Shown: positions 4,701-26,250 of the stretch, piece after piece
Layout of the letters: each line of letters opens with the position of its first letter
Position numbering within the stretch: position 1 is the stretch's first letter
DNA from: Microthyrium microscopicum
Lineage: Eukaryota
Assembly: GCA_010405405.1 (NCBI GenBank)
Contig: MU004244.1
Span: 623,895-687,894, forward strand
Direction: 5' to 3'
DNA length: 64,000 nucleotides
Position numbers and translations under genes: made by a program
The notes under the pieces: generated by a model
The model's database searches: none
The model's input: the letters and a program-made list of their open reading frames with translations, nothing else
Told to the model about the DNA's origin: nothing

Positions 4701-6238
4701 CTAATGCAAAGTTTTGATGATCTTGAGCAAGTCTCCAGTCACGCCCATCGCAGTGACATCGCCACCAGCACTATTCTCATCAGCTACTGTCGAAACAAGA
4801 AATCTTTCGACTTACCCAGCGCCCTGGATGATAAGCGGGTTATCACCATACCGTTCAGTATAGAAGCTGATAATGTTATCGCTCCCCTTGAGCGCTGCAA
4901 TCGGATGACTCTTCTCAAATCTATACCCGTTAGCAAAACGTCCCCCTTTCAGAAAACACATACTTCTCCAATCCAACCTTGACCTGCCCACCCACAACGT
5001 CCACACTGCCCACGAACCGTAGTACCTTGCCTTCCTTCGCAGCATCATTCTTCAGCGTCTCCATCTCACCATCAAACTTCTTCATGCCCTCTAGATACGC
5101 TTCCGCACTCTCCGCACCTTCAAGCTCTTTCGGTACCAAGCTCTGGGTCGGGAAAGCCTCCGCATCTCTAACCTTCAGTCCGGCCAACCGTGCCAAAATC
5201 GTGCACTTCCTCGCGACATCTAATCCATTGAGATCATCCCGCGGATCCGGCTCCGTATACCCCAAATTTCGCGCCTTGCTCACACACGCACTGAAACTCG
5301 GTCCTGCCTCTCCGGACACTGGATTCCACTGGTTGAAGAGATAGCTCATTGTGCCTGAGAACACACCCTCAATCTTCTTCACTTTGTCTCCTGTGCCTAC
5401 GAGCTCTGTGAGTGTACTCAAAATCGGCAATCCAGCACCTACAATCCGTCAGTATAACGCTTCGAGATAGACCATTCGGTCATTCGTGGTGCAAATGTAG
5501 ATCATCTTTTGGAAACCATCGCATTCAGTTAGGCCCATAGCACTCGATCAGAGACAGGTTCTATGGTAGCCATCGAATGCGATGGGGTTCATCAAGCACC
5601 GCAATAGGAACATCTCGCGGAAGTGAAAAGCTCCAGGATTTCTTTTGTCTTTGATCACATCCTGTGAGCAATGGTAGCCACCAGGTGTCTTGCCGTTATG
5701 GGATATTGTCAAAGAGATGTAAGGAAAACCTACCCACACTGCTCTCATGCAGCACTTGCCCACCACCCACACTCGACGCAGCCGCAACAATGCGCTCCCA
5801 CAGATCCTCAGCCCCACTGAACGCCTTCTTATTCGGCGTCACCACATTGACGCCTTTACTTAGGAAGGTGGGATAGCTCTCTGCAACGACATTGCTCGCC
5901 GTATTATCCACCAACACTGCTGGCGCCGGTGCCGCTGCTAGCCACGCAGCCAAGTCACTAAGAGCCAGAGGTGCGGGTGCATTGGATAGATCAGCAGGCA
6001 GCGCGAGGGGTGTGTAGTCAGGAGATTGTAGTGCGGAAGTGGAGCGCGATAGGTAGATAAGTGAAAGAGCTGTTGGAGTCGGTGCGGCAGCGAGACGGGT
6101 GGAGAGCGTGGCGAGTTGGGAGAGGAAGGCTTTGCCTACGCCGCCGGTACCTGGAGAATTATTAGTATGGAGCTTTTCAATGGTAGGATGGGAGAGAAGA
6201 ATACCGATTACGGCGATGAGAACTTGGCGGGGTGGCAT
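4701..6238 (-). CDS. HOM6: Homoserine dehydrogenase (5 exons)
   Basis: Motifs G-T-GGVG (NAD binding), VVTPNKKA, HESSVG/AGLPI, EGVFSGTMSY, GYTEPDPRDDLNGLDVARK and IQGAGAGGDVTAMGV. Introns include a long one at 5439-5733. Confidence 0.95.
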
Positions 6239-6642
6239 TGCGTTTGTGCTGATGGGATACGGTGATATGCGATTGTGTGGGTTTTATGCTTAGAGGAGAC
6301 GGTGATTGTCGGCAAGTGTAAATGGCAGACAGGAGTGATATCAAATCCCGAGAGAAGCAAAAGCCGGCGCGAGAAATTTCTGGTGTTTAATTGTGAGCCC
6401 CGCAATATCAACAGAGCCCCACGTTAGCTTACCGTAGCACGTCACTCAAGAACTCAGGGGTATTGTTTACAGTGTGCCCCACAAAGGGCTAAGTATTCTT
6501 CATTAGCTATTAAACATGAATACACCAGTCAGTATGTAAGAATCGCTAGTCAAGATAGCTTCGTATCCAATATCTCATGAAGCCATCCAAAGCAGCCATA
6601 AAGCATGGATCAAGAAAGAATTGGGCAAAGTGCAATCGACTA

Positions 6643-8986
6643 CTAGTCAAGCTCAGTGCCAGGTTCATCCAGTCCAAGTCGAGCCTTCAAGTCGCGTTTG
6701 AGATCGTCAATACTCATCGTCATGAATTTTCGCTCTCGAATTGGATTGGCACCGATCTTGAAAACCCGTAGACCTTCCATAGTTCCAATGAGCGAATCGA
6801 GGCGTGAGAAGTCGTTGCCAGTGAAATCGACGGTACGTAGACCTGACAGAGAAGTGAAGCCTTCAGGGATGGTAGATATCTTGTTGTCCTCTGCGTAGAG
6901 AGTCATGAGTGATGTCCAATCTGACATAGGAGGTAGAGATGTGATTCGATTATAGTTGATGTTGAGCTCTTTCAGAGAGGGTAGAGTCAATGGTCCATAT
7001 GATAGTGCGATGAGTGAATTGACAGAAACGTCCAAAGATTGGAGACGAGGCATTGAAGTGTTTGCGTCGGTGAATAAGGTTCCGGATAGATGGTTCTTCA
7101 TTGCATTGAGAGATACGAGTGATGTTTTGGCGAGTGACTCCATAGGTAGAGAGTCAATCTGGTTATTGGAGATGTTTAGAATGCGGAGATGAATCAATTC
7201 TCCAATCTCGGCTGGAAGAGAGATGAGCTTGTTTCCTTGCACTTCTAGCACTTCGAGTTGTGTTAGATTTGAAATTGAAGAGCTCAGTTCACCTGCAGAG
7301 TGTTAGTCAAAGTCAAGATGATCTACAAGAACAGAACTCACCAGTCAATGCGTTGTCGGTGATCCGTAGCTCTTTGAGAGAAGAGATTTGTGCGATTGTC
7401 TCGAATGAATCATTCATCAATTGATTTCGTGACTAGTTCTATTAGCTTGAACTCCAGAAAACGTTTCTCGGGAGACTTACCAGATTCAAAGACGTGAGCT
7501 GTGTCAGACGTCTCAACCCTGGAGGAACGTCAAAGAGAAGATTCCCATGCAAATCCAAATGCTCAAGACCACCAAATTGAGGACCCAGAGAATCGTCATC
7601 ATCAGCTAGATTATTCATATCGATATCAGGGAAGACTTCGCCAGGAATAGACTCAAGCTCATTGTCAGCAGCGATGAATTTGGTAAGGTTCATGACCTCT
7701 CCCCAAGCAATCCCGCTCTGGTCCTTGTTGTATTCATAATCGTACATTTTGAGGACTTCTTCTGGAATTTCTTTCAGACTCATACCCGCAATGTTGAGGC
7801 GGCCTTCGGAGCGAGCAGTGTCCACCCGACGTCGCATGACCAATTTGCCTCCTTTGGGCTGAAGGTTGAATGGATCGTCGTTCAGATCAGCCTCGAATCC
7901 AGTTGAGTCTGGCACTATCGCGACGTCAGATCCTTCCGGACGCTCACTGAGGGACTTTTTCGCGGCCTTGGCAGCTCGAATCTGATCTCTCAGTGCCGAT
8001 GAGGATTTCGCAGCGTTAGCAGGAGGTTTCGGTTTTCCGTCTTTTGGTGTAGGGGCATCGTTCGGTCCATTAAAGACTCCAGCAAGAGCAGGGCGTGGTT
8101 TAGTAGGTCGAGCCGCAACAGTTTTGCTTCCACCCAATGGTCGTTTGGCCGCAGGTTTTGTAGTTGAAGTCGGCTTAGTACCTGCCAGAGACGGTCTAGC
8201 CTGAGCAGTACTCACGCTTCGCTTTCCCGCCGCATTCCCCGGTCCAACCGACTGTCGTGATCGCGAAGTTCCCGCCACGTTTTGAAGACGAGTTAGTGCT
8301 GGAGTTTTCGGAACTGGTGGCATGTCATCTTGATCCCCCCAGCTTCTAACACCAACTGCAGACGATGGCCGTGGGGCCATTGGACTATCTGGGTTGAAGA
8401 AGCTTGAACGTCGGCGCTTAGCCGGAGTGGGTGGGAGTTTTGATATTGATTCCACTGCTCGCTCGGCCAAAGAGAGACGAGTATTTACACCAATCTCCGG
8501 AGCCTCCGGCGATTCATGAGGTGCCTCGATTGGTGTATCATCGGATCGGAAGCCAGCGCGAGAGGAGGCTCGAGAAGCGGATCTGAAGCTATCAAGATCG
8601 CCAAGAGTATCGTCTCCTTCTGTTTTGATGGTAGATGATGTAGATATTATGCTGTTTCTAGCAACATTTCGAGTACGGGATGTAGAAGATTTAGTCTGGC
8701 TCGTCTGACTGGTCTGTGAGGTGGGACGGGGAAATCGAGGAACGGGGGGTTTGGCGGGACGCTTGAAAGTTGCAGGTTGTGAGGGTGTGGTTGAAATCCG
8801 ACGCGAATTCGATGCAGGTTGACGTGTCTTTATGGCATCAATCGATGGCTTTGGTCGCAAAGGGATTTGTTGTGTTGTTGCAGGTTTAGGGGCGGGTTTG
8901 GGAGCAGCCGCCTTTGGTATCGGGAGACGGGAAAGACGCGGAATTCCTGTTGGACGCGCAGTGGGAATGTTGGCCGAATCAGCCAT
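6643..8986 (-). CDS. Conserved fungal leucine-rich-repeat protein with a long disordered N-terminus (multi-exon)
   Basis: ORFs 7442-9010 and 6643-7251 joined through a small exon at ~7343-7435; many LxxLxLxxNxL repeats. Probable start MADSANIP at 8986. Confidence 0.85.
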
Positions 8987-9455
8987 GTTGGAATATTGGC
9001 GATAGTACAATTGGCATAACCAGGAGAGATGGTGTTTGTTGTTGTGGGTTGGGAGTGTATTTGGGTTGGGAGAGAGATGGCAATCTTGATGTTGTAGCTG
9101 TGTTTGGCAAAGCTTAAGGAGGTTACTTTGGTTTGGCTAGTGATGCCATTGAACGCTTGGTCCATGTACATCAGAATTACGCACGGTCCAATACAGTATT
9201 GCAGGTGAAGAAGTCGTGCCTCATATTCTTTCCATGAATTAATCATGTTGAAATCAGACATGTCAGAAGCATGGCAATTGGTTTGTTATAGGTACATGGC
9301 CCGGCCTTGGCGAGAAGTAGTCAGGTCTAGATCATGGTAAATTCATAATGACAGATTTAATTGTCTGACAATCTAAGATTCCAGGAAATCAGGATAATAA
9401 ATTCTGTCACCCTGACGAAGGACGGCCATCTCCATCTCATGTCTTGCATTAACTT

Positions 9456-10169
9456 TCAGTAATAGCCACAAGTAGTCCATGTCGCCCTCACTAGAGTTGG
9501 ACATATCATGTTGGCCGTACAGTTTGCATCTTCGTGTAAAATGTGGTTCAGAAGAACTTTCTCGCAGTGCATAGTATGTTTCCAATGTGATAAGTCGCTG
9601 TCGATTGGTAGATGATCGAGCAGTACTCCATGCATCTTTCGCCACATATATGTGCAATGAATCTGGTGGTAACTTCGTGGTGCAAATGCTTGTGGGTGAT
9701 CGCCCCGAAAGAGTTGCTCCATGGGAATTTTGTTCTGCAGTTTGGGATCAGAGTACCATGCCCAGTCATTTCGCTTCATGAAGTCGTCCAAAAGATCTTC
9801 ATGATAGCACTCTGGCCTAACCCAAATGTAGCTCATGGGGTCAAAAACGCAGCCATGTGCTCGGGCTTCTTCGATAGTTTTGTTGCTGCCACAAGTGCCG
9901 AGCTCGATTCCCGTGGGGAAGAGGTGAACATGCTTCTGCAACTTCCAGGTTTGAAAGGCCGTCCAGCATATCAAGGCGAAGGCAAAGACGGCCAGGCCAC
10001 AGAGTACAAATCTGTAGAGCCGATGAGAAGCTCTGGCAGTGCGGTTCTTGTGCCAACCCTCTGCGTCAGTGGAGGTAATCAAAGGCGCCGTGCTGGAGTC
10101 GAGATAAGTCGCTTTATCGAGTGTGATTGTTGAATCGGTGGACGTTCGGTAATCACTGGCAGTGGCCAT
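9456..10169 (-). CDS. HxxHC-HxxHC (DUF3328-related, PhomB-like subtype) RiPP tailoring protein Y1
   Basis: Intronless. N-terminal TM helix (FVLCGLAVFAFALICW), CG...EEARAHGCVFDPMSYIW, HQIHCTYMWRKMH and HTMHC motifs. Probable start MATASDY at 10169. Confidence 0.8.
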   Translation of the reverse strand: MATASDYRTSTDSTITLDKATYLDSSTAPLITSTDAEGWHKNRTARASHRLYRFVLCGLAVFAFALICWTAFQTWKLQKHVHLFPTGIELGTCGSNKTIEEARAHGCVFDPMSYIWVRPECYHEDLLDDFMKRNDWAWYSDPKLQNKIPMEQLFRGDHPQAFAPRSYHQIHCTYMWRKMHGVLLDHLPIDSDLSHWKHTMHCEKVLLNHILHEDANCTANMICPTLVRATWTTCGYY

Positions 10170-10777
10170 TGTCAATAATTGGTAAGGATATAGAGTGTTC
10201 AAACTTGAGTGACTAAGAAACAAATCTGCGAGCTCCCGTCCAGTGTCACGGCGCAGAGGCATTAAAGGAGAAGACTCGAGCACAACAGACTGCTATGGAA
10301 ATAGAACTGGCGGATTCACTGCGCCGCAGGAAATTTTGACGGATCACCTTGCAGGATGAGGATCCATATTATGGGTAGCAACAGATCTACGAGTTATGCA
10401 ACGCCGCACAAAGCAAATGAAGTCGACAGACTATCAGAATTACCAGGGACCTCAGGAGCAGGATGAAGAGGATCTATATAACCCCGGTTATCACCCCATG
10501 TTTGAGTGCTCACATATCAAATCATTGCATGCGTCAACCGGCTTAGACACAGAGGCTTCTAGGATTGCCCTGCCTTACCTGCTTCTGCCCTGCCATTACA
10601 GCTAACGTCACTTCAATGGCAATAAGGCTGGCTGTGCCGCAAATGTTGGGCCACTCAATCAAGAAGATAGAACCGTCAAGAATAGCCATTCTGTCGAGCT
10701 GGCTTCTGGGGTCATTAAGGTTTTATCTCGACTTTTCATTACTTCGTTGCACATTTGCCTTCTGACGGAAAGATATT

Positions 10778-11861
10778 ATGGAGAAATTGTCATCTGCCTT
10801 ACCAAAGCGATTGTTCCATGGCGAATACCATAGACTACCTCTGCACGAAGAGCCGCGTACTTATACAGACAATTCTGTTCACAGGCTGGGTGGAAACGAT
10901 CGCAAAAACTGGCGGCAGGTTGCTGAACGAGTGCTTCCATGGCTACTTGTTTTAACATTCGCCTGCACAACGATTGCCCTTCTAGTTTCTAGCAGCTCCG
11001 AAGCTTCGGATAGCTGTAAAGAACGGAAAGGCTGGACAACAGACTTTAGTATGTTCTTAGATCTGCCGATCGAGGCTTTCCTCCTGACGCTGTAGTGCCT
11101 GCTACACCGGCGATTGAACATGAAATTGTCTACTTTAGTGGAAGTCCTGCGATTGCGGAGAATGGATCACTATTTATACCGAACCCAGATCCAGTGCGAT
11201 ATATTGGAGAACCCAATGCTGAAGTTGACAAGAACTGGGATGAGCTTACTTGGGGTGAATCTCTCTTCCTCGTTCCCTAATATTAACTAAAAGATCCTAG
11301 GCCGTTATTTCTTGATTACTGAGGATGAAGCGAAGTCAGCTTGGGGAGACGACGTAGGAGAGTTCTGGGATGAAAAACAAGGCGGATACGTGGCAGGGTA
11401 ATGTTCAATATTCCAGCCGTTGTGCCTCCATTTTAGCCACTGACTTCTCAAAGCATCGATATGTTTCATACGCTTCACTGTGTGGTAAGTAGAGCCCTGA
11501 AATCAACAACTCTTATTAATTGAAAGAGCAGGACCAGATAAGGAAACTTCTGCATGCGCCGCATTACAACATTACAATTTCCACGAATACTGCCCTCCAT
11601 CGTGATCATTGTTTGGAGCAAATTCGGCAGTATATTATGTGTGCTGGGGTAAGTCCTTGCGAAAAAAAGGAGTTTAGCATGTCACTAACATGCTTGTAGG
11701 ATTTGACGCCAATTCCGACAAAGTTTTATTCAGGACTGGGTCGGAACTACGTAGACTCGGACTACCCTCACACCTGTCGAAACTTCCAGAAGCTGCACGA
11801 CTGGGTCCTTGATAGATATGAGGGAGCATCCGCTGTACACAGTACAACCCAGGGACCGTAG
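10778..11861 (+). CDS. DUF3328/UstYa-family oxidase Y2 (6 exons)
   Basis: Spliced by eye: TM helix (VLPWLLVLTFACTTIALLV), GEPNAEVDKNWDEL, IDMFHTLHCV, HRDHCLEQIRQYIMCAG/DLTPIP, HTCRNFQKLHDW; stop TAG 11859-11861. Canonical UstYa signature with GT-AG introns. Confidence 0.92.
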
Positions 11862-12549
11862 AATCATACTGGTATCTTAATTAGTGACTCGAATACGCTG
11901 GTATATCGTCTATCTAGCTCTGTTAGGGTCTTAGAAGACTATATTGTCAATTTCAGTAGTCTAGTAAGCTTTGTGAGGCTTTAAGCGGCATACCTCAGGT
12001 CAATTTCTTCTTCAACCTCCTTGTGTGTGCTTGAGCTTGATTCTCATTGTATGAAATTGACTTGATTGGAAGAAGCTTGGAGCTATGTCGCCAGTTTCCT
12101 AAAGCAACCTATATCGTATTCAATTAAACCTTATTTTTATTACTCCAAGCAAAGGTGAACTGAATGTACTCGCCTCCTAGTGTGATAAAAATGTCTTTTC
12201 GTGAGACTAGAGCATCCTTTCTCGAGTCATATCACTAGAGAGTATCAACTACATAAAAACACATATACCTAGTCCTGGATGTGCTGGCTACCAGGTTGGC
12301 AATCCTAAATACCTACCCGGGCAGGTAGTCTCATACGCATTAGAGCATGCGGCACAGCTATGTGAGTCTCGGCGAGATGGAGCTTAGGCCAGAGGATATT
12401 GCTTAGCGGATGCACATTACATGTTTAGAGCTGCCTATTCTAGTTCGGGATGCATACTCAACACGAGTCCTACTGCTCCTGCACAACCAGTGCGGCGAAC
12501 TTGGAGAATTAGGCCCAATCTAGATACTATTGTTTGTAAGATTTGTTGG

Positions 12550-12557
12550 TATATATA
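12550..12557 (+). promoter_or_regulatory. Putative TATA element of the precursor gene
   Basis: TATATATA about 100 bp upstream of the ATG at 12658, followed by a CA-rich leader ending CAACATG. Confidence 0.4.
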
Positions 12558-12657
12558 TCAGCATATGGCTCAATGAATCAGTTGGCCATACACAAAACTA
12601 AAGCCATTCAAAATCTCATTACCAATAGTCCAACTAAACACCCAGTTCTTGATCAAC

Positions 12658-13051
12658 ATGAAGACTTTCGCCACTTTCACCGCTCTTATTCTCTCTGTTT
12701 CGGCACTGCCGCTCGCAGCTCCTAAGGTAAGAGTGCAAAACAATCAAGAGGTCTGCTAAATCATCTTTTTAGGTAGCAACCGGTTCTCAGCAGGAAGGTG
12801 TTGTCACCTGGGCAGATGTTTCTAAACGGTCTGAGGCTCAGGCCGAAGGTGTTGTCACATGGGCAGATGTCTCCAAGCGCGATGGGGCGCAGAAAGAGGG
12901 CGTTGTTACTTGGGCAGACGTTAGCAAACGAGATGGAGCTCAAAAGGAAGGTGTTGTTACTTGGGCTGATGTTTCCAAGCGCAACGAGGCTCAGAAAGAG
13001 GGTGTTGTAACTTGGGCAGACGTCAGCAAACGCAGTAGCGATGACTACTAA
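12658..13051 (+). CDS. Kex2-processed repeat protein / RiPP precursor peptide (115 aa, 2 exons)
   Basis: Exon 1 12658-12726 MKTFATFTALILSVSALPLAAPK (signal-peptide-like). Intron 12727-12772 (GTAAGA...GCTAAA...TTTAG). Exon 2 VATGSQQEGVVTWADVSKR-SEAQAEGVVTWADVSKR-DGAQKEGVVTWADVSKR-DGAQKEGVVTWADVSKR-NEAQKEGVVTWADVSKR-SSDDY*. Confidence 0.93.
12779..13033 (+). repeat. Coding tandem repeat, 5 x 51 bp
   Basis: Five 51-bp units, each ending in Lys-Arg codons; differences within EGVVTWADVSKR are all synonymous. Confidence 0.95.
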
Positions 13052-13954
13052 GTACGGTCAATTCTTTTGATATTGGCGCCTTTGGCCTTTCATTTCTATT
13101 ACATATCGCTTTGAGTTGGAAATGTCAATCCTACCAGTCTCAAGTCCAATGTTACAACTTTCTTTAATCTTATCGCTCGTATGACCATACTTTGTTCAAG
13201 TAAACTCTTGGGATATGATGCGGATTCTTCGTTTTGAGTAAAATTGCGTTACAACTTAATGGAAAGTGCGATGATCATTTGCTTCTATGCGAATACATTC
13301 TCAGCGCATAATGACAACGCTAATTTTACATTCTAGCGGATTGGACTCATCAGCTCAGCTGCAAAGAACAAGATGTTCGTTTAGCCTCTCCTTCGGAGGC
13401 GTAGGGTTTGATCTGGTCATTTCTCTCGAATCCTCAATATATTGACTAACTTCCCCTTGCTATAGTTACATTGTTTGAATCCTTCTAATCCTTCAGGTGG
13501 ATATGTAAATATCCCAACCACTTCACCTGCTTTTCCAGGTCCACTGGCAGGCAGAATGCAAGATCCATTCAAGGATTAACGGAGAATAACTAAGGTGTAT
13601 CCAGTTATGCTTGTCGACCTAAGGCTACTACATATTTCCCTGGATACGGTAACCAGTTATGGCATTGATTAACAAATTCATTGGACTAGAAAGCAAAATA
13701 TAACTATCTTGGGTACCAAGCAGAGTCTAGTAGCAGAATCCAATAACAAGAGAACGGAACTGTAACCAGGGTGTCGCTGATCGAGCAGATCAATTGATTG
13801 TGTATAACCCTGTCCGCCATATCGGGTTGCCTCTGGGCACGCACTTTATCGATGGATTCGCTTCTCTGTCACTGAGAGATGATGAGAAGCCTTTCACCCA
13901 TATCTACCTGTGACCGTGTATTCGAGCTTGTCAGTCTCCGATAAACGTCAAATC

Positions 13955-14969
13955 ATGGCTTCTGCGCAAACTCTCACTTACCTCGGCAATTGTCATTGCG
14001 GTGGCTATCGATTTGAAATCTCCCTGCCCAGAATCGAGAGTGCCATCTCCTGTTCATGCAGCGTTTGTTCGAAGAAGGATTCTCTGTGGGTGATCCCCGA
14101 GGAAAAAGCCTTTCGGGTGGTTCGGGATGACGGGCACTTGGTCGAATATGAGTCCAGATCATTAAAGGAAAAGGTAGCCAGACAATGTATTCTGAGACCC
14201 TGTACAGATAGTCATGCTAACAGTGAACCAGTTCTGTGGTTCTTGTGGCACGCAAGTGACTGCAGAGCATCAAATCGGAGATCTAGCGCGATGTTTTCTT
14301 GTTAACATCCGGACCATACGAAGTCCATACGTCAATCCGTTTCAGCTCAAGTACTTCACTCCTCTGATGAGTTTTCAAAGTCTTACTCTCAAAAGGAAAA
14401 CCATTATGACGGCCAGCGTTGTCGACAAGAATGAAGCAAAACAGATAGCAGTTGGCGCATCGCATGCTCTAACACAACATAATTTCGTCTGTCACTGCCA
14501 GCGGATTCGAGCAGAGTTGCTTGTCACTCTCCAAGACCAGGAGATCAAGGAAGATAATTGCAGTGCTTGCGTCAGGGTATGTCGGATTCCTCAACAGCAT
14601 ATTTGATTGTATAAAGATACTTAACGTTGACAGAATGCCTATATTGGTGTGTACCCTAAGAAAGAGCAAGTCATAATATATGGAAGAGAGAATGGCTTTG
14701 AGTATCTTACAGGTCGTAAATACAGTGGAGCAGTACATTGCAAAACATGTGGCGTCCAAGTCTTTAGCAACATCTATGGACCGCCGAGAAGCATGTTTGA
14801 TAAACTTGCCCCAGAGAGAAAGGAAAAGGCTCTGAAGGTATACCACAAGAATATGCAGCTTCAGCCCCTGAATGTTCGAGCAGTAGAGGGAGTTGATATA
14901 TCTTCACTTCATATCATACGATCAGACGAAGGAACAGAGGGCTACAAGCTTGATGAGGAGAAACATTAG
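13955..14969 (+). CDS. Tandem GFA/CENP-V (Mss4-like, Zn-binding) domain protein (4 exons)
   Basis: Domain 1 GNCHCG...CSCSVCSKK...FCGSCG; domain 2 VCHCQ...DNCSACVR/NAYIGVYP...HCKTCGVQVF...LNVRAVEGVD. Three short GT-AG introns. Confidence 0.85.
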
Positions 14970-15046
14970 AGCCGCGGATTCACAAATCTCATTCATATAT
15001 AGCACAATAAACTCTCTGTGAATTTTGCCCGCTCGAGAAACTAGCT

Positions 15047-15785
15047 TTATCTGCGAATTGAAGCTTTATGCTTCTTGGCCCATTCAAGAATCTGACTCCA
15101 GTCTCGACATTTGCGGTGTTCTACATTCCAACCATTTATCGCTCGGTGCACGCCTTTGAATGCGTCCTGCGCCGGCTCAATGGTAACATCTCCTGCGCAC
15201 ATCAATGACTGTCTAACGTAATCAAAACAATGGTCAATATGTTTGTGAAGATACGCTTCTGAGGAGTTGTAGTCTAGCTGTAACAATTGGTCCCTCGTTG
15301 TAGATTGCAGTTCTCCCGTGAGAAGATTATAATAATTGTTTCTGATCATCTCCAAACAGTGCAATTGGTGAAAAACAGAGACACCGTAGTGGTCGGCGCC
15401 ATAAGGTTGCTGTATTCCAGGCGCAAGGCGAAGCTGTCGTTGGTGCCGTTTGTTGATCTCAAGGAAACCGCCCCCAGCTGTAAAGAGGGATCGTCAGTTA
15501 TATCACGATGGCATTTAGTGTTCTTTACCTGGGCGCATACTGCTCCAAGCCTCAGAAGACTTGTTGCCGGAAAATATGGAGAAATTGTCATTTGGCTGAA
15601 AGACTTTGCGAACAACTCGTACTAGCATAAACTTAGTATAGTTCTGATTACTTTCACGGTTATGTCTCACCATCTATACAAAAGTCGTTGAAGAAATAGA
15701 TTGACTTAATCGTTGTTATACATAAACTGACAGCCAGGAAAACTGACAGTGCTTGGAGACCTATCCGAACCAGTGATGAAACCAT
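15047..15785 (-). CDS. DUF3328/UstYa-family oxidase Y3 (3 exons)
   Basis: MVSSLVRIGLQALSVFLAVSLCIT (TM), introns 15622-15670 and 15478-15528, AWSSMRPAGGGF, VSVFHQLHCLEMIR, HIDHCFDYVRQSLMCAGDVTIEP, GWNVEHRKCRDW. Confidence 0.92.
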
Positions 15786-16568
15786 CTTTGCATAAGGTCA
15801 AGACAAAGGGGCAATGCTCATAGAGATTTCAAGAATGTCCGACCTGGTGAATGCGTAAGTCAAGTACTTGAGTAGGTTGTGGAATTGAAGCTGGTGTTGA
15901 GAATCGAACTTGTTTGTGTAGAGTGCAACATGCTTGTGGACCCGACTGTCCATGGCCGGTTCATGCGGCATGCCCAACGTTCGAGTGGGAGTGTTGAGCA
16001 TGGCGTACCATTAAAATCCTGCTTCCAGATCCCATGTTCTGGAAATCAATATTGCAGAATCCCAATGGTCAATCATCTACCAGGGCTGAAAAGCGATGTA
16101 CCAGCTCGGAGGATTAGTTGCGGCACAGTATAATTTGCAGGATCGCCGTGACTAGTTTTGAAATCTAGCTGTACCCTAGTTGTCGATTTGCGAATCCTGA
16201 TGCCTTACTCATTCATATACACTGGGTCGATCATTAAAAAGGATCGCGGAGTTCCAAGGAGCAACTAGTGCGGTCGTAAAATATCCAAGGCATCACTTGA
16301 ACATGGTTGAAGGTATTGGGAATACTTCGCCGCCTGATCATGAAAATAGAAGGAAACGTTTTCAGACACAAGCCGAGAAAAGAGAATAGGACCTGATTCA
16401 TAGGATGTAAGGGAGATCCTGATTCTGAAATCATCCCTTTGCTGTGACGACCTACTTCGGGGAGATTTGATCAATTACAAGTACGTAGCATTGTACAACA
16501 GCTCTTCATACCAATCTCTCTATATTCCAACTTTCAAGCTGAGCACTGGCTACAGTAATTGCTCCAAA

Positions 16569-17222
16569 ATGCCTGCACATATCCTAACACCACCGACGAA
16601 AGAGCTAGTTTTGAAATTGTCAACGAAACATAGACGACGCAGTGTGCTGGGCATCCTACTTTTTGGAGTGGCTTTCGCGTTAGCCATTGTCATAGTGTAC
16701 TTTGACCTGCTTGAACAGACCAAGTTCATGAAGGTACCATATGAAGCGCCGTGTGGCGATACATCCTCTGAGGCTCAACGCAAAGGGTGTCATTTTGACA
16801 CAATGGCGTTCAGTTGGGTCCCTCCAGCTTGCTATGACGGCGAGCTAGAAAAGGAATTTCTAAGCAAGAAGGACTGGGTGTGGTTCCTGGAGGAGAATAA
16901 CAATATTACAATTTCCCCTGAGGTCGTCCAAACAGGGGATATAAACGTTGCATGGGTGACTTGGGAATATCACCAAACTCACTGCACATATATGTGGCGA
17001 AAAATGCACCGAGCAGTCGCTGCATCAACACCTCTGGATGGATACATCCGCGACTATCATCATACTGCGCACTGCGAGGTGATGTTGCTGCAGGATGTCA
17101 CAGATAATCGGAAGCAACGAGAGTCAATTTATATCAAATACCCAAACTGTGGTGGGCCAGACGTTGGACACCTTGGATGGTTTAGAGTCATCAATGGCAA
17201 GCGCTATCATCGAGATCCCTAA
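16569..17222 (+). CDS. HxxHC-HxxHC (DUF3328-related, PhomB-like subtype) RiPP tailoring protein Y4
   Basis: Intronless paralogue of Y1: TM helix (VLGILLFGVAFALAIVIVYF), CGDTSSEAQRKGCHFDTMAFSW, HQTHCTYMWRKMH, HTAHC. Probable start MPAHIL at 16569. Confidence 0.8.
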   Translation: MPAHILTPPTKELVLKLSTKHRRRSVLGILLFGVAFALAIVIVYFDLLEQTKFMKVPYEAPCGDTSSEAQRKGCHFDTMAFSWVPPACYDGELEKEFLSKKDWVWFLEENNNITISPEVVQTGDINVAWVTWEYHQTHCTYMWRKMHRAVAASTPLDGYIRDYHHTAHCEVMLLQDVTDNRKQRESIYIKYPNCGGPDVGHLGWFRVINGKRYHRDP

Positions 17223-17351
17223 GCTACTGCTCGAAGGGTTAGACACACCTGATACTAGATACTATCGTATGCTGGCTCTGGAGTGTCGCCTCAGTTCGCG
17301 CTATACCCATCATTGAAAGAACACGATTTTAGGTCTGGATAGGTAAACATA

Positions 17352-17990
17352 CCGTAGCGTGGAGGGGGGAGTAAAGGACTTGATATTTTAATGAAACTAC
17401 ATGATCTTTTGAAGTCTTTTTAGAAGTCTATTCTTCTCTAGAAGATGATGTCTTGAGTAAACCTTATGTTCTGTGAATAAAAGTAATTACGACTAAAGAT
17501 AAAGAAGGCACGATAGGATGTTAGTAAGAATGAAAGGATAAAGTATAGGAGCTAAATAGATTAGGGGCTATATATATAAGCTTAGTAATTTATACTCTAT
17601 TATTATAAAACCCCTAGTAAAATATAGTCATAATTCTGCCTTGCTTAACTAAGCTATAGCGTATTAATCTAGCCTAATTTATAATTTAAATTATAATTTA
17701 TTTAAAAAAAGTATTTATTGCTAGTTGTCTTGCTCTCTTAATCCTTTATTGAATTTAATAGTAATTTTTTTTGCCCCTCTTTATAGCTATAATATAGCTA
17801 AAAAATAGCTAAAACATAGTTTTTTTAGAAAATGCTTTTGTAAATAGAAAATATAGGTTTTCTAAAATAGGTATCTTCTCTTAGAAAGTAGCATCGATTG
17901 TACCTCTCTGCAGAATATACATTTTCTTGTCTAGAAGCTTCATAGGATGATCACTGGTAAATTTCCTCTACCCCCCCTCGCGCGCTACGG
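17352..17990. mobile_element. Decayed non-autonomous DNA transposon (Tc1/mariner-type MITE), RIP-like
   Basis: Imperfect TIRs: CCGTAGCGTGGAGGGGGGAGTAAAGGA on the left versus reverse complement CCGTAGCGCGCGAGGGGGGGTAGAGGA on the right. TA on both flanks (17350-51, 17991-92). Interior is very AT/TpA-rich with no ORF. Confidence 0.8.
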
Positions 17991-19379
17991 TAGAGAGCTT
18001 GCGAGAATATACTTTCATCAACCACGACCTGAAATGGTAACACGAGTCTCAAGACTAGAAGTTTATGATTGAATAATGTTTTTGTCACGATGTTTTTTCA
18101 GCAAGGTACTGCAGTTGAGGCAATCGGTCAACACTTACGCGATGTGTGAGGAGCTTGCTCATTTTTCTACCCGAGAAGTAGGGCGTAGCAAACCCCGACA
18201 ATTGTCACGATTATTGGGCCAAAAACAGAAGAAATGGTTACTGAATTATTACAACATTAATTGAGAACTTTAGGAGCCTTTCAGTATCGAGTGTCATGGT
18301 ACGGTAGACATCAGGGTGGAGGGGAGGAAGTCGCAGAGCTTGCTGATTTTGCCGGGAGAGGTCGCGCCTCTTGTTCTTTCCATGTTGAATCTAGCGTGGC
18401 TTCCACGTCGCGAACTCGCGGCAAATATTAACGTGGGTAACGCGCCGCGTGGTTTCTTTCCCGGCAAGTCAAGCTGGCAACCGTGATGGGTACTGACAGG
18501 TACTTCTTCTCCCTTGCAAGGAGATATCTTATCGCGCTAGGTTATTGTGCCGAGACTTGAAGCACAATAGTATATACGATATGTCAATAAAAATAAATGG
18601 TACATACAGATTTAACGCAGTACGGATGACAGTCAGTAGATATTTAGCGACCGATTCGACTAGGCGCGGTTACCATGGTTGCAAGGAGTAGCAGCCGCTA
18701 TTGGCTACAGGACAGGCTTGTCCAACCACCGTGATTCCCTGACTTTAGCCTTGCAAGGCTTTGCTCAGAAAAAGACTCCACCATCTGAAGCTTTGATTAT
18801 TCTCTTGTGTGTCAAAACAGCTGCAACTCTTTTAGCCTTGACTCTTCCCCGCCTCCATCATTCTCTCATCCTCCATTTCCAAGAGTCCCACTCTCTACCT
18901 GCATTATCGTCAACTTCTTCACCTGCCCTGACCATAAACGCCCTGTTACACTGGCTAAAGTCTCTCCCCGCCACCTTGCATTCTTTCAGTCTACTCAAGG
19001 CCTGATTCAGTCGTGGCTACAGCACGCGTTGAAACATCGAGATACTTCCGAAACGCGCCATGCTGATCCGCGCTTGAGAGTACATCCGCATCGCGAACTC
19101 TCTTTTCTACTATTTTGCTTATTACTCGTACTACCCGACTCCACCCTGTCTGTCAAGCCTGTCTATACAACCCACTCTGCTATTCTCATTTGTACTCTGG
19201 CCTATTTCTCCGCCCGGCCTCTCAATACCTACTTATTCTAGCCCTTGCGCAATCTTCTCCCTTCTATCTCAAGCTCGCCTATATATTCCACATCTGCCTG
19301 CTTTGCGCATATAAACAAAACACTCAACAGAGTCACTACTTCCAATCGAGTCTACCGGCTACTTGCATTGGCCGCAATC

Positions 19380-22310: not shown

Positions 22311-24323
22311 CTAAATCAAGGTGAAAGCTGAGACGATACTGGCTAGCATAACAACCAAGCCACCTGAACACTCTAAACCTCGTGACCCACCACTCGTCTT
22401 CGCGACTAAAGACGGCAAGTAAGGTTTAGGTGTTCTAGAATCGATCGTTCCATTCCAGCAATACCTGCTAAAACAGCCTTCACAAATCTTAGGCACTGTT
22501 GTCCCCGTGCGATTGAAACTGCGTGAAAGCACCGCACAGCCAGCACATGCCGGCCACTCCGGGTCCAGTGTGCCATTTGCGCGCGTGGCAGAGCCATACC
22601 CATTAGCGATGATGGAGTTTCGCTGTGAGTCTGGAATGCTCAGATCAAAGGTTGATATATTGGCAAAGTAGGATATTGGTGACATGGGCATGTAAACTAC
22701 CAAAGGCGTTCCAGCGGTGTTGTTTCCAGCATCACAGCCAAAGAACGAGGGCCTGGAGTTGAGGCCTAGGTTGATGAATGTATTCTGGTCTGGAATTGAT
22801 GGGAATCCAGAAGCGCCTTGACGGAGACCTGAAGCAAAGCGCTGATATGTAGCAACCTGTGTACAGTTAGCGCGTGTTAGAAATTATACGGTTAATGTAC
22901 TCACCATTGCTGTACCATTGGGCCAATTGGAAGTATCAGCTGAGCTGTCGACGGCGAAGATGACATCCACGTCTCGAGATGCTCTTAGTAGTGGGTGAAA
23001 GGGAATGTTTTGGAGGTCTTCACCGCCGTCAACGAGGGTCAAATTCTTGAATGCTGAATTCTGAGCAGTGCCGTTTCCATAGCCATAGAATGGATTTGGC
23101 CAATCGGATATATCCTCATTGCCAGCACCAACTCCAGCAAGTACGTCGTTCAGCAGGCTTTTGAGGGTCTTGTTGATGTCCGTATCGTTAAGATTGAGGT
23201 AAAATTGGTTGAACAATGAAGACGATGTTCCCACCACGAAACCCAAGTTGTCAAATCCTTTGACACATGTCTTGGCCGATCCTCCATTAAAGTCGGATCC
23301 GACGTATTCAAGTGGAACATAACCATTTGTGCTAGCATCGTAGCTACCAAACTCCCAGGGTGAAACTTCAAAGTTAGTTGTATTGACTGGAATCAATAGT
23401 TCTCCAGGAGCTCTCTGATCAATGACAATAAGGGGTAAAGGTGCATCTCCACTGGTGATTGGTAAACTTTGAGCCAAGGATGAGAAGTGAAAGTCTGGTC
23501 TGCCATCACTGGAGTCAAAGAGTTGATAAGAAAGCGCTCGACCCCAATAGTCGGTGAGTGTGATATCAAAACCCGCCGATTCCTTGGCTCCAACACTACT
23601 GGTGAGGTCGTCAAAATAGGAAGCCACATGTATCAAACCTCTTGGTCCTGCCAAAGTCAGCAATAGCTCCTTCCCACCAATTCCTTCACTAACCTGTCAA
23701 TATCGTAGTATCGAATTGCCATAAACTTCCAAGCCCATTCTTGCCAGTTAAGTAACTCTCTATAGGCTGGAACCCATTATAGTAGTTGCTGGCCAACAAC
23801 CAACTTCCTCCAGATAGCCCTGCAACGTAGGTCGCGCTCTGCAATAATCCACCAAGATGGCCCTTTGCGGTAGAATTCGACGTACGAATATCAAACGCTG
23901 CCAGCGCTCCTGCACCGTTCGTCAACGCCCGCCATCCACCCCCTGAGAATGCAATTCCCAAGTTAGGTAAGTTGGAAGGGTTGCTCAAGTGATTATCAAG
24001 ATATGCGTTGGTATCGAAGCCGCTGAGGTTTGCTCGTGAGAGAAAATCGCGGAGGGCAGAGATGGATTTTGGCCGGCGACTGGCCAGCCATGCTGTCTCA
24101 TTTGGTGAAAGGGCATTGGCGGAGGATACTGTTGGAACACTGGCAGGGCAGGCTACGACTGAAGGAGCGTAAGAAGATTGAGATGCGCGTTTTAGTAGAT
24201 GAACAAGGTCATTTGGAGCAGCGGCTGCTCCGGAAATGAACTGTAGCAAGAACAATACCCCTATAAAGTTAGCCAAAAGGTCAAGATCTTGAGGCTGCAG
24301 AACTTGCCTATTGTCAAATACAT
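22311..24323 (-). CDS. PLB1: Lysophospholipase / phospholipase B, secreted and probably GPI-anchored (4 exons)
   Basis: [14 protein letters not shown] nucleophile motif, [11 protein letters not shown], hydrophobic C-terminal tail. First exon MYLTIG is joined through a GC-AG intron (24261-24307). Confidence 0.92.
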
Positions 24324-25486
24324 TATCAATCTTCAAAACTATTACTGCTACAATGAAGAAAGGATTGAAAAGTCAGGATGGAGGAGGCGGTGGGGTCATT
24401 AGTCTAATAGTCCCATGTCTCGTTTGCTTCCCAGGGACCTGTTTTTAACGCCAGAAATGGAACCGTACTTGAGGATGAGGTGAGATGGGAGAGTGGCAGT
24501 GCTCAAAGAACATGCAGGTTACACTGATGGACACAGGATTATGACGAACATGACTTGGCTCTACTCTTCTTTCCAAGGCATCCGACTGGCGTTTTGGCTG
24601 GACCAAGTCTTGGACTGTTCAAAACGGAACATCCAAGAAAAGCGAAAAGAATTGAAGCATTTGGTTTTTTGAAACACGCGTTTACAGATTTAGCGAGTCG
24701 CGCTTTTGTATGATGCATCATGCGCGTACCCGATATCGCGGTAGCGCTTCGTCTTCCTGCATTATCTCTGCAAGCGCTCAGATTTCGACCTTTACTTGAT
24801 GCTTCATACTTCAGAGCCTCTTCCTTTTCGTCTAATCTTTAAGAGCCATGCTGTCTCGTACACAGTTATCGATCTAAATTTGTTAATCACCTACTAGATC
24901 TACAGCGCCGGTTCCCGATCCCGGCCCTGAACATCTCCCGCGATTCCAGTAGACAAGCATGCCATGTCCAAAACCTATAGTAACTGCAAATGAAAACTCG
25001 GATCTACTGTTGAACATCAGGCTCTTAGTAGCTTATCTTGAACTGTGGCTAGAGATGTATGTTCATCTATTCTGATGTTACTAGTTCCTGTCATAGACAG
25101 ACATCTTTGGTGGAAAGCTTACGCGATCTCGATTTAGCGACCGAGAACTCTGAGGTGCATTCTGCTCTGTTATTTCCACGCCCAAAAGGAGACCCATGGA
25201 GATCGTTGTCCCAGCAAGTGCGCGATACAAACAAAAATTTGACGCGATGAGTTGAACTTTCAACGTCAACAAACGCACTTTGCCTCAAGAAGCCCAGAGG
25301 CAGTATATTTATACCTTCCTCTAGGCACCGGACTAGTAAGAGTCAAGACCTGGGCACTCTACTAAATACGAATAAGACACAACACTGTTCACTCTTGTTT
25401 CCGAGACTCAAACTTACGGCTCATCACTGATTGTGAAAAAGTCTAATCAGGAATCTTTGGACTATTAGAAACCAAGGTTGTTCACT

Positions 25487-26250
25487 CTATCTACTCAGGA
25501 AACCATGCACAATCTGTAGCTTTGTCAAGGTAAACTCGCCATTGGTAAGATCCTTGATTCCAGCAGAGAACTTTTTGATCGGTTCGCCTTTAGCATGTGG
25601 CCCATCAAAGAACTCTTCCGTTTCCCAAACATCAACCACGTGAATCTTGTTGGTTTCCTTCTCTTGGCTTACAGTGCAACCAAGTATCTCAGGCTCAGAT
25701 GGATCCAGCTCTGATACCAAGGTCTTGAATACTGGTATAGCATCTGCCATTTTACCCTGTTGATAGCCTATGCTTGCGAAGATTACCATCATTCCCGGAG
25801 CGGGTTCCGTAGCGGACCGCCTGAAATCAATAGTTGGACTCAGAGCCGCTATATCTGGCGGGCTAACGAGAGGTGTCTCGGATTCAAAGAACTTCAGAAG
25901 ACCTTGGACAGGTGGGCAGCTCATGTGAGCATCCATTGCTGCTTGATCTGCATATCTTTCAAGGTTTAGTTGATTTTCATTGTCAATGACGCTGCGGTCT
26001 CTACTTACTGTTCGAGCATATAGATTGAGGTTTCATTCTTTTGATCTAGAGGAGTACATGTAACGTATCGAATCACTCCTGCCTTCTCATTGACTCGAGA
26101 GTATTCTGTGATCTCTTTGAAAATAGCAAGGAGCTTTTTTGTTGGTTAGAGGTAAACGATCGATCGAAAGTTCTAATGAGTGCTAACCTTGTCGCGAGAC
26201 TCTTTGTTTTTTGCCTGGAGATGGGCGGTGACCACAAGGTTACTTGACAT
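25487..26250 (-). CDS. Tandem ABM-like (dimeric alpha/beta barrel) domain protein, multi-exon
   Basis: Exon 1 MSSNLVVTAHLQAKNKESRDK/GTTAGC; further exons with QEPGV...; C-terminal SEPEILGC...IHVVDVWETEEFFDGPHAK pattern. Confidence 0.6.

Follow-up and report, generated by a model that had tools for sequence, protein, structure and literature searches.

The six genes at positions 9456-17222 of the window (the whole 64-kb stretch of DNA analysed) probably form a RiPP biosynthetic cluster of the Kex2-processed-repeat/HxxHC-oxidase type, in which four proteins, Y1 to Y4, oxidatively tailor the peptide VVTWADV. The cluster most likely makes an undescribed modified peptide from a precursor that carries five copies of this core. 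An earlier note on this DNA had described six genes with these boundaries in the order <-Y1, Y2->, precursor->, GFA-like->, <-Y3, Y4->, and the gene models bore this out, with intact reading frames and canonical introns in all six. The housekeeping-type setting that it had described was also recovered: to the left lie genes for an LRR protein and a homoserine dehydrogenase, to the right those for a disordered coiled-coil protein and a lysophospholipase. The six genes examined include neither a tyrosinase nor a methyltransferase, P450 or transporter gene. The features of the locus are as follows.

9456-10169, minus strand: Y1, 237 aa, single exon, taken from the open reading frame
10778-11861, plus strand: Y2, 278 aa, six exons (10778-11048, 11096-11254, 11301-11397, 11454-11484, 11532-11648, 11700-11861), from an intron search and a spliced model
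12658-13051, plus strand: precursor, 115 aa, exon 1 12658-12726, intron 12727-12772, exon 2 12773-13051
12794-13033, plus strand: repeat array within the precursor, five 36-nt core units with a period of 51 nt, from Tandem Repeats Finder
13955-14969, plus strand: GFA-like gene, 299 aa, exons 13955-14173, 14232-14576 and 14634-14969
15047-15785, minus strand: Y3, 212 aa, exons 15785-15671, 15621-15529 and 15477-15047
16569-17222, plus strand: Y4, 217 aa, single exon, taken from the open reading frame

Each of Y1 to Y4 contains one strongly hydrophobic segment followed, on its C-terminal side, by two HxxHC motifs. Six-frame translation of the window yielded 11 HxxHC motifs, compared with a mean of 3.64 per window and a maximum of 9 in fifty shuffles, and eight of the 11 lie in the cluster, two in each Y gene. 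The precursor is flanked by four double-HxxHC genes, all within 3.5 kb.

For all four of these proteins the earlier note had proposed a check against PF11807 (UstYa/DUF3328). The check came out positive for Y2 and Y3, but Y1 and Y4 gave no Pfam match. Y3, which has an N-terminal TM anchor and the motifs HQLHC (106) and HIDHC (149), scored 101.6 bits against PF11807 (cut-off 25). Exons 5 and 6 of Y2 (one TM segment, HTLHC at 181 and HRDHC at 209) matched consecutive parts of the same profile with 24.5 and 18.0 bits, and the spliced Y2 model scored 106.9 bits against a local UstYa profile. By these profile matches, Y2 and Y3 are UstYa/DUF3328 proteins. A public protein, P0174, has the same length as Y3 (212 aa) and is 100% identical to it over the last exon, the part queried.

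As judged from their sequences, Y1 and Y4 are members of another double-HxxHC family, which has no name and lies outside PF11807. In Y1 a disordered N-terminus precedes a single TM helix (about residues 45-80), and the predicted luminal domain contains HQIHC at 168 and HTMHC at 198; a public 237-aa protein, P0006, is identical to the Y1 model. Y4 is a paralogue of Y1 (32% identity) with a TM anchor, HQTHC at 135 and HTAHC at 165. No Pfam family matched Y1 at E<=10 or Y4 at E<=0.01, and the precomputed Pfam assignment was empty for all 23 homologues listed. Among family members, PF11807 was matched by 2 of 21 at E<=10; at E<=0.01 the count was 5 of 150, with 4.8e-4 as the best E value. The family comprises about 2300 representative clusters (E<=1e-3), with Y1 a member of the Y1 type (C-terminus CPTLVRATWTTCGYY) and Y4 a member of the Y4 type (C-terminus ...KYPNCG...GWFRVINGKRYHRDP). 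Cladophialophora carrionii has both types two locus tags apart, G647_02748 (Y1-type) and G647_02746 (Y4-type), the latter being 46% identical to Y4 over 164 aa. At least two HxxHC motifs were present in 154 of 168 family members, with a 30-residue spacing in 116, and H168, H171, C172, H198, H201 and C202 (Y1 numbering) were invariant or nearly so in 150 diverse sequences of the family.

Homology between the Y1/Y4 family and UstYa/DUF3328 is only suggested by sequence comparison. An hhalign comparison of the two alignments, with only 9 sequences on the UstYa side, gave a probability of 33% and an E value of 4.5e-4 over 51 columns, with the motifs in register, and cross-family HMM scores were 5.8-13.5 bits versus about -2 for the controls. 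UstYa was the first named neighbour in an Atlas feature search (0.86, a lead only); UstYa clusters were not among the matches listed in the Atlas structure search.

The AF2 model of Y1 (pLDDT 87.5) places each HxxHC motif on a helix. When modelled as a homodimer, Y1 scored 0.70, a model confidence rather than a measurement, versus 0.00 for the best of three controls; agreement between the runs was no lower than 71% of contacts, with a partner pLDDT of 81. The mark for this score was reached by 21 of 30 solved one-chain pairs and 0 of 23 solved single chains among microbial proteins, and by 17 of 29 pairs (only 1 of 7 without an older solved relative) and 0 of 30 single chains among eukaryotic ones. 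The modelled interface coincides with the two HxxHC helices, residues 166-186 and 194-210. A similar arrangement is described for CctR, the cyclochlorotine hydroxylase, an O2-dependent DUF3328 enzyme that is a TM-anchored homodimer whose HxxHC(x)nHxxHC motif lies within a coiled coil of four helices, with two Cu bound (PMC12435403). Y1 resembles CctR as described there in its disordered N-terminal region, its single TM helix and its luminal domain (predicted in Y1), and in both CctR and the Y1 model the two motifs lie on adjacent helices at the dimer interface. Unlike Y1 and Y4, CctR is of the PF11807 type and acts on a non-ribosomal peptide (PMC12435403), whereas Y1 and Y4 fail PF11807, keep a fixed 30-residue motif spacing and have a copper site that is putative.

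The position of Y1 and Y4 outside PF11807, and the fact that literature and database searches found no characterised member of their family, would fit a reading in which only Y2 and Y3 modify the peptide, while Y1 and Y4 are enzymes with a different substrate or else scaffolds, chaperones or transport adaptors. We consider this unlikely. Both motifs are conserved across the 150 diverse family members, and in the Y1 model they sit on the helices of the dimer interface, an arrangement also known from the copper enzyme CctR. Genes of the family also recur beside precursors elsewhere: of 28 metagenome loci, four (L002, L013, L022 and L027) have KR-repeat precursors about 0.7-4 kb from Y-family genes, and a UstYa-type gene adjoins in three of these four.

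The gene between Y2 and the GFA-like gene encodes a signal-peptide, KR-repeat precursor, as had been proposed. Exon 1 encodes the signal-peptide-like MKTFATFTALILSVSALPLAAPK, with a 19-residue hydropathy maximum of 1.75 at residues 3-21, and exon 2 encodes five exact EGVVTWADVSKR units, each KR-terminated, with 5-residue spacers between them. The units start at 12794, 12845, 12896, 12947 and 12998, and Tandem Repeats Finder reported a period of 51, 4.6 copies and a score of 239. At the DNA level 12 of the 36 sites of the core unit are variable, with a mean of 7.0 pairwise differences, and all of the differences are synonymous. Purifying selection on the repeated peptide is strict. Five homologues of the precursor (P0001-P0005, E<=0.01) were found among 2893 candidates, including proteins from Copromyces sp. 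and Beauveria bassiana, and all five have the same core. All 18 repeat copies of the six precursors contain VVTWAD, followed at residue 7 by V in 15 copies and by I in the other 3. The core was found in no paper of the searchable literature (a scope that leaves most subscription journals and MIBiG outside) or in the supplements of PMC7329392, in keeping with the suggestion that the repeat may be undescribed.

Trp is the sole aromatic residue of VVTWADV. Tyr is absent from the core and its flanks in all 18 copies of the six precursors, and in the window precursor Tyr occurs only once, at the C-terminal end and not within the repeats. The ether bridge of ustiloxins, phomopsins and asperipin-2a is formed by Tyr (PMC7329392), so a bridge of this type is impossible in a Tyr-free core. 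The label dikaritin-type given by the earlier note stands as far as the repeat precursor and the adjoining PF11807 genes are concerned but fails on the core Tyr, and dikaritin-like is best read as describing how the pathway works, not as demonstrated membership.

In a 2020 survey, 78% of 7878 Kex2-processed repeat proteins had no nearby DUF3328 gene, and those of the mating-factor type are given there as unmodified (PMC7329392). The VVTWADV precursor might likewise be an ordinary Kex2-processed repeat protein that yields linear peptides, pheromone-like or signalling, with the HxxHC genes acting elsewhere, and no modified product is known from the locus. We regard this as decidedly improbable, given the four double-HxxHC genes within 3.5 kb of the precursor and the repeated occurrence of Y-family and UstYa genes near KR-repeat precursors in the metagenome loci. 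Against it also stands the finding of the same survey that DUF3328 gene frequency peaks at the position adjoining the repeat precursor (PMC7329392).

Transcript contigs were seen for Y2, the precursor and Y3, half of the six genes. The spliced contigs (run X1) remove exactly four predicted introns, 11649-11699 in Y2, 12727-12772 in the precursor, and 15478-15528 and 15622-15670 in Y3. For the precursor, one spliced contig spans 12549-13115 and removes exactly the predicted intron. Y1 and Y4 were covered by no transcript contig, which counts neither way. A reading of the locus as a remnant, decaying or silent, that yields nothing under any condition would agree with transcript contigs for only half of the genes and with the lack of a known metabolite, but is very improbable in view of the six intact reading frames with canonical introns, the four introns spliced in RNA contigs and the exclusively synonymous differences between repeat copies.

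For the preferred reading, in which Y1 to Y4 tailor VVTWADV, we infer the product and its cyclisation as follows. The 115-aa precursor would enter the secretory pathway by means of its signal peptide, and the housekeeping Kex2 protease would cut the five EGVVTWADVSKR units after each KR, followed by trimming. In the ER/Golgi lumen, VVTWADV would be oxidatively tailored by the four type-II membrane-anchored HxxHC(x)nHxxHC enzymes. These may be disulfide-stabilised dimers, as expected by analogy with CctR, AprY and ApnU, the last two being cited as a cyclase and a halogenase, respectively, in PMC12435403. The two HxxHC helices of each protein would contribute to a four-helix bundle with a binuclear copper centre, which would use O2 to attack C(sp3)-H bonds. 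Because the core has no aromatic residue other than Trp, the enzymes most likely join the Trp side chain to a beta-carbon of Val, Thr or Asp by one or two cross-links and also carry out hydroxylation or desaturation. The end product would be a small secreted macrocyclic peptide.

Known dikaritin pathways pair UstA with UstYa and UstYb, PhomA with PhomYa-e and AprA with AprY. Several UstYa paralogues per cluster are normal, with two in the ustiloxin and five in the phomopsin cluster. The locus described here has in common with these pathways, whose general features are set out in PMC7329392, a signal-peptide precursor, tandem KR-terminated repeats and adjoining DUF3328/UstYa double-HxxHC membrane proteins. 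It differs in its Tyr-free core, which precludes the Tyr-O-to-beta-carbon ether bridge, in that two of its four HxxHC proteins (Y1 and Y4) come from another family that has no Pfam model, in the absence of tyrosinase, methyltransferase, P450 and transporter genes, and in the additional tandem GFA-like gene. The epichloecyclin cluster, reportedly built on the GigA repeat precursor and the GigB DUF3328 protein, is likewise small and compact and combines a repeat precursor with a DUF3328 protein; its core peptides are different, and it apparently has no Y1/Y4-type protein or GFA-like gene.

The proposed bond has a parallel in plants. Burpitides of the stephanotic acid, moroidin and lyciumin types are made from repeat-type ribosomal precursors by BURP-domain cyclases, which are copper/O2-dependent and have a four-His site, and the cross-links in these peptides join Trp to an aliphatic beta-carbon. 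This bond type is open to a Tyr-free, Trp-containing core such as V-T-W. A parallel between BURP and DUF3328 enzymes has been drawn in PMC12435403. The burpitide enzymes and the HxxHC proteins of the cluster have unrelated folds and belong to different kingdoms, and the bond is here a proposal.

To our knowledge, fungal RiPPs of known structure are few, and in those of the UstYa type the bridge is a Tyr ether. An expressed cluster with a conserved, Tyr-free Trp core is therefore a concrete target for a new cross-link made by DUF3328 enzymes, whose copper dependence was recognised only recently. If the Y1/Y4 family is catalytic, mining keyed to PF11807 underestimates fungal RiPP clusters and misses a whole enzyme family. 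Quite tentatively, Y1 and Y4 may represent a second large fungal family of binuclear-copper, peptide-modifying proteins alongside UstYa, and VVTWADV a widely conserved ascomycete RiPP with a Trp macrocycle. Were this so, surveys of repeat precursors that rely on Pfam would have overlooked the family, which Pfam does not detect, and the macrocycle would hold Trp-to-beta-carbon C-C or C-N links, a counterpart in fungi of the plant burpitide cross-links rather than the classical dikaritin Tyr ether. With six genes and no accessory P450, methyltransferase or transporter, heterologous reconstitution is practical.

The remaining gene had been identified as encoding a GFA protein, and a GFA-like gene with tandem Cys motifs of the CENP-V/GFA type is present. 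The zinc-binding pattern CxC ... CxC/CxxC ... CxxC defines the GFA/CENP-V family. The protein has two Cys-motif domains, one half containing CHC13, CSC33 and CGSC75 and the other half CHC160, CSAC183 and CKTC224. Its N and C halves align with an E value of 8e-5, and the alignment keeps their CxC and CxxC motifs in register. Against PF04828 (cut-off 24.3), exon 1 scored 21.5 bits and the unspliced ORF 22.9 bits, each being a fragment that lacks part of the domain. CENP-V/GFA accounted for 25 of the 30 named Atlas clusters nearest to exon 3 (score 0.92, a lead only). No tblastn match to the gene was found in the 28 Y-family metagenome loci, and its part in the pathway is uncertain. The protein has no TM segment or signal peptide and is predicted to be cytosolic; as a tandem GFA-like zinc protein it might serve a thiol or aldehyde step or self-protection, or be a bystander.

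The locus is of interest mainly for two features, a conserved core peptide free of Tyr and an unrecognised family of HxxHC proteins. An earlier note on this DNA had placed six genes between housekeeping-type genes, in a given order and orientation. Both parts of this description were borne out by the six gene models at 9456-17222 and by homoserine dehydrogenase and LRR protein genes on the left and coiled-coil protein and lysophospholipase genes on the right. The window is fungal in character, with short GT..AG introns and about 46% GC.

Genes of the cluster and its flanks
4933-6283, homoserine dehydrogenase, housekeeping-type flank
6646-9136, LRR protein, housekeeping-type flank
9456-10169, reverse strand, Y1, HxxHC protein, 237 aa
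10778-11861, forward strand, Y2, HxxHC protein, six exons, 278 aa
12658-12726 + 12773-13051, forward strand, precursor, 115 aa
13955-14969, forward strand, GFA-like gene, three exons, 299 aa
15785-15047, reverse strand, Y3, HxxHC protein, three exons, 212 aa
16569-17222, forward strand, Y4, HxxHC protein, 217 aa
19242-20945, disordered coiled-coil protein, housekeeping-type flank
22314-24372, reverse strand, lysophospholipase, housekeeping-type flank

Y1 is identical to a 237-aa entry of a public protein collection (P0006). A second entry (P0174), labelled as a hypothetical protein of the Dothideomycete Microthyrium microscopicum, shows 100% identity over the last exon of Y3, which served as the query, and at 212 aa equals the Y3 model in length. 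Directly 3' of Y4 lies an AT-rich stretch (17001-18000, 36% GC), which includes small tandem repeats (17407-17819) and marks the right border of the cluster. The lysophospholipase (PLA2_B) gene at 22314-24372 consists of three adjacent open frames that match successive parts of the Pfam profile; presumably these are exons with short introns between them, not a broken gene. Farther right, 8 kb from the cluster, an ORF with an ABM (antibiotic-biosynthesis-monooxygenase) domain (25490-26032, reverse strand, E 6.4e-7) was not counted as a member; unrelated genes intervene.

Contigs of a public run (X1) match the locus without mismatches and exactly lack four introns, 11649-11699 in Y2, 12727-12772 in the precursor gene, and 15478-15528 and 15622-15670 in Y3, all with GT..AG ends on the coding strand. 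One contig (12549-13115) spans the whole precursor mRNA. The run type, 'RNA?', is a guess, and spliced mRNA is the best explanation for contigs from which four introns are precisely removed. X1 does not cover Y1, the GFA-like gene, Y4 or most of Y2 and is uninformative about their expression. A 271-nt contig was also seen at 11875-12139, just 3' of the Y2 stop codon, with a depth of 39, whereas the contig over the coding exons of Y2 has 3.6. No convincing ORF was seen in this interval, and the transcript may be the 3' UTR of Y2 or a separate small abundant RNA.

The precursor begins with a hydrophobic, signal-peptide-like stretch and ends in SSDDY. In between, EGVVTWADVSKR is repeated five times without change, with a five-residue spacer (S/D/N, E/G, A, Q, A/K) between successive copies; Tandem Repeats Finder gave a period of 51, 4.6 copies and a score of 239. 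Among the five 36-nt core units, 12 of the 36 sites are variable (mean pairwise differences 7.0), and none of the differences, a TCN/AGC serine switch among them, changes an amino acid. Hence the copies are old, and selection preserves the peptide rather than the DNA. When exon 2 was searched against 5.8 billion proteins, five relatives were recovered at E<=0.01 among 2893 candidates, each a short signal-peptide protein in which the same core occurs two or three times. VVTWAD is present in all 18 copies of the six precursors, followed by V in 15 and by I in 3; after this seventh residue come one variable residue and KR, the Kex2 cleavage site. Copromyces sp. CBS 386.78 and Beauveria bassiana are the named sources and the other three relatives are environmental; the core is thus conserved in at least two classes of Ascomycota.

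In each of Y1-Y4 a single strongly hydrophobic segment precedes the two HxxHC motifs (at 168/198 in Y1, 181/209 in Y2, 106/149 in Y3 and 135/165 in Y4). The six-frame translation of the window contains 11 such motifs, 8 of them within Y1-Y4, compared to a mean of 3.64 in shuffles. The DUF3328/UstYa label (PF11807) that the earlier note had attached to these proteins held for Y2 and Y3 but not for Y1 and Y4. Profile scores assign Y2 and Y3 to UstYa/DUF3328: Y3 scored 101.6 bits on PF11807, the last two exons of Y2 scored 24.5 and 18.0 bits on consecutive parts of the profile, and a local profile made from Y3 with its relatives gave 106.9 bits for the spliced Y2 model. Judged by Pfam, Y1 and Y4 are not UstYa/DUF3328 proteins. 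Y1 matched no Pfam family at E<=10 and Y4 none at E<=0.01, a precomputed Pfam domain was found in 0 of 23 listed homologues, and PF11807 touched only 5 of 150 family members at E<=0.01.

Y1 and Y4 are paralogues (32% identity over 170 aa) and belong to a large family. When 1.84 billion representatives were searched with a profile built from 21 members, 2300 representative clusters matched at E<=1e-3, and 1794 did so at E<=1e-10. Two or more HxxHC motifs were present in 154 of 168 members examined, with a 30-residue spacing in 116. There is little or no variation at C93, C107, C121, H168, H171, C172, H198, H201, C202 and C234 (numbered as in Y1). Two types were distinguished: 52 of 167 compared members score nearer Y1, with the C-terminus CPTLVRATWTSCGYF, and 115 nearer Y4, with the C-terminus KYPxCG...GWYR. 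Cladophialophora carrionii has one gene of each type, G647_02748 and G647_02746, two locus tags apart.

Profile-profile comparison aligned the Y1/Y4 family and UstYa with both motifs in register (probability 33%, E 4.5e-4, 51 columns), and reciprocal HMM scores between the families were 5.8-13.5 bits, compared to about -2 bits for two controls, the GFA-like protein and the precursor. In an ESM Atlas feature search a UstYa cluster ranked first among the named neighbours (0.86, 171 shared features), a hit that counts only as a lead; UstYa clusters were missing from the Atlas structure search listing, and the family, compared by hhalign with the Y3 sequence alone, gave no match (probability 1%). 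We therefore call the Y1/Y4 family a sister family with a common motif pair, and its homology to UstYa is no more than plausible.

The confident AF2 model of Y1 (150 sequences) has a pLDDT of 87.5, and above 96 in the luminal domain. A long TM helix covers residues 45-80, the first HxxHC motif lies on helix 165-184 and the second on helix 196-206. Modelled as a homodimer (residues 45-237), Y1 scored 0.70 compared to 0.00 for the best of three controls, with a contact agreement between runs of at least 71% and a partner pLDDT of 81. In calibration the dimer mark was reached by 21 of 30 one-chain pairs and 0 of 23 single chains from microbes, and by 17 of 29 pairs and 0 of 30 single chains from eukaryotes, where only 1 of 7 without an older solved relative reached it. 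Because no relative of either HxxHC family was found by sequence among solved structures, the pass of the Y1 dimer model is unlikely to come from memorised structures. The predicted interface (166-186 and 194-210) is formed by both motif helices, which together make up a symmetric bundle of four helices. Foldseek of the Y1 model gave no match in the PDB at E<=0.001. The best match in a wide VIA-align search (Z 5.1) was confined to the long TM helix (residues 38-84), and with matches on this helix only, the search points to neither a new nor a known fold for the luminal domain. The Y3 model, from a 9-sequence alignment, is poor (pLDDT 56), and its helices over both motifs are indicative only.

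The CctR report (PMC12435403) describes the same architecture as that of the Y1 dimer model, with two copper ions bound and with O2 and electrons required. For Y1 the bundle of motif helices is a model only. By analogy, Y1-Y4 would be luminal copper oxidases working on the peptide.

The dikaritin-type reading of the earlier note is supported by the KR-cut repeat precursor with UstYa enzymes adjoining, as in dikaritin pathways. It fits less well in that the core here has no Tyr; moreover, half of the HxxHC enzymes come from a family with no Pfam model, and the GFA-like gene is extra. The ustiloxin and phomopsin clusters have accessory enzymes, whereas this locus does not, and no transporter, P450, methyltransferase, tyrosinase or protease gene was found between the flanking housekeeping-type genes. 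Plant copper BURP cyclases form links from Trp to a beta-carbon. Since Trp is the only aromatic residue of VVTWADV, a Trp-to-beta-carbon link of this kind is our preferred guess for the cross-link in the core.

VVTWADV and six of its sub-strings were absent from the searched literature, which lacks most subscription journals, and the dikaritin literature since 2023 contained no such core as judged from listings. No literature on metabolites of Microthyrium microscopicum was among the matches listed. In a 2020 survey covering 7878 Kex2-processed repeat proteins (PMC7329392), neighbouring genes were assessed by Pfam, and on that account the survey could not have seen the Y1/Y4 family; VVTWADV has 0 occurrences in its text supplements, where the table is possibly incomplete. 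Most fungal RiPP chemistry is in subscription journals, and we therefore call the core undescribed provisionally.

The two halves of the GFA-like protein can be aligned (E 8e-5), and their CxC and CxxC motifs then coincide. The protein has neither a TM segment nor a signal peptide and is predicted to be cytosolic. Exon 1, as an exon fragment, fell short of the PF04828 cut-off (21.5 against 24.3 bits). For exon 3, CENP-V/GFA accounted for 25 of the 30 named Atlas clusters that lay nearest (score 0.92), which is a lead only. No literature linking GFA proteins to RiPPs was found, and that on GFA in fungal clusters, judged from listings, included none on RiPPs. The one argument for a role in the pathway is the location of the gene, between the precursor and Y3, and we regard its membership as possible, if on balance doubtful.

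A scan of metagenome contigs with the Y1/Y4-family alignment yielded 28 loci at 29-42% identity. They are distant relatives, not orthologous clusters, many only 1-5 kb long, and neither the precursor nor the GFA-like protein had a tblastn match in them at E<=1e-3. By tblastn, 8 of these loci have a UstYa-type gene next to that of the Y family (L004, L005, L013, L019, L021, L022, L024 and L025), and a Pfam scan, run on L002 and L027 only, added a further UstYa-type neighbour in L027. In four of the 28, a clear signal-peptide or KR-repeat precursor is present at a distance of 0.7-4 kb from the Y-family gene.

Repeats of precursors near Y-family genes in metagenome loci
L002, EPVQYWDKR, 4 copies, 3 then KR
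L013, GSVVSVYKR, 5 copies
L022, KKVTFVPKDYKR, at least 8 copies
L027, EQLGELGNNTDKR, 5 copies

Precursor, UstYa and Y-family genes occur together in L013, L022 and L027, and this co-occurrence makes the Y1/Y4 family a recurrent companion of KR-repeat precursors. In L002 the Y-family gene (8013-8711) and the KR-repeat precursor (9438-9632) are 0.7 kb apart; no PF11807 gene was found in the 8 kb upstream and the contig stops about 300 bp beyond the precursor, making this a possible cluster with a Y-family enzyme alone. L024 and L025, near-identical loci from different metagenome records, each pack into 10 kb three paralogues of the Y family plus two UstYa-type genes. The repeat screen, which misses intron-split precursors, found none in either. 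L017, flagged by the first repeat screen, was dropped as a long ordinary protein. A long open frame in L021 (15383-16072), which has a UstYa-type gene and three paralogues of the Y family as neighbours, contains about 20 EGKAQGKAQRDV units and no KR sites; this array may be a different kind of precursor or a mere repeat.
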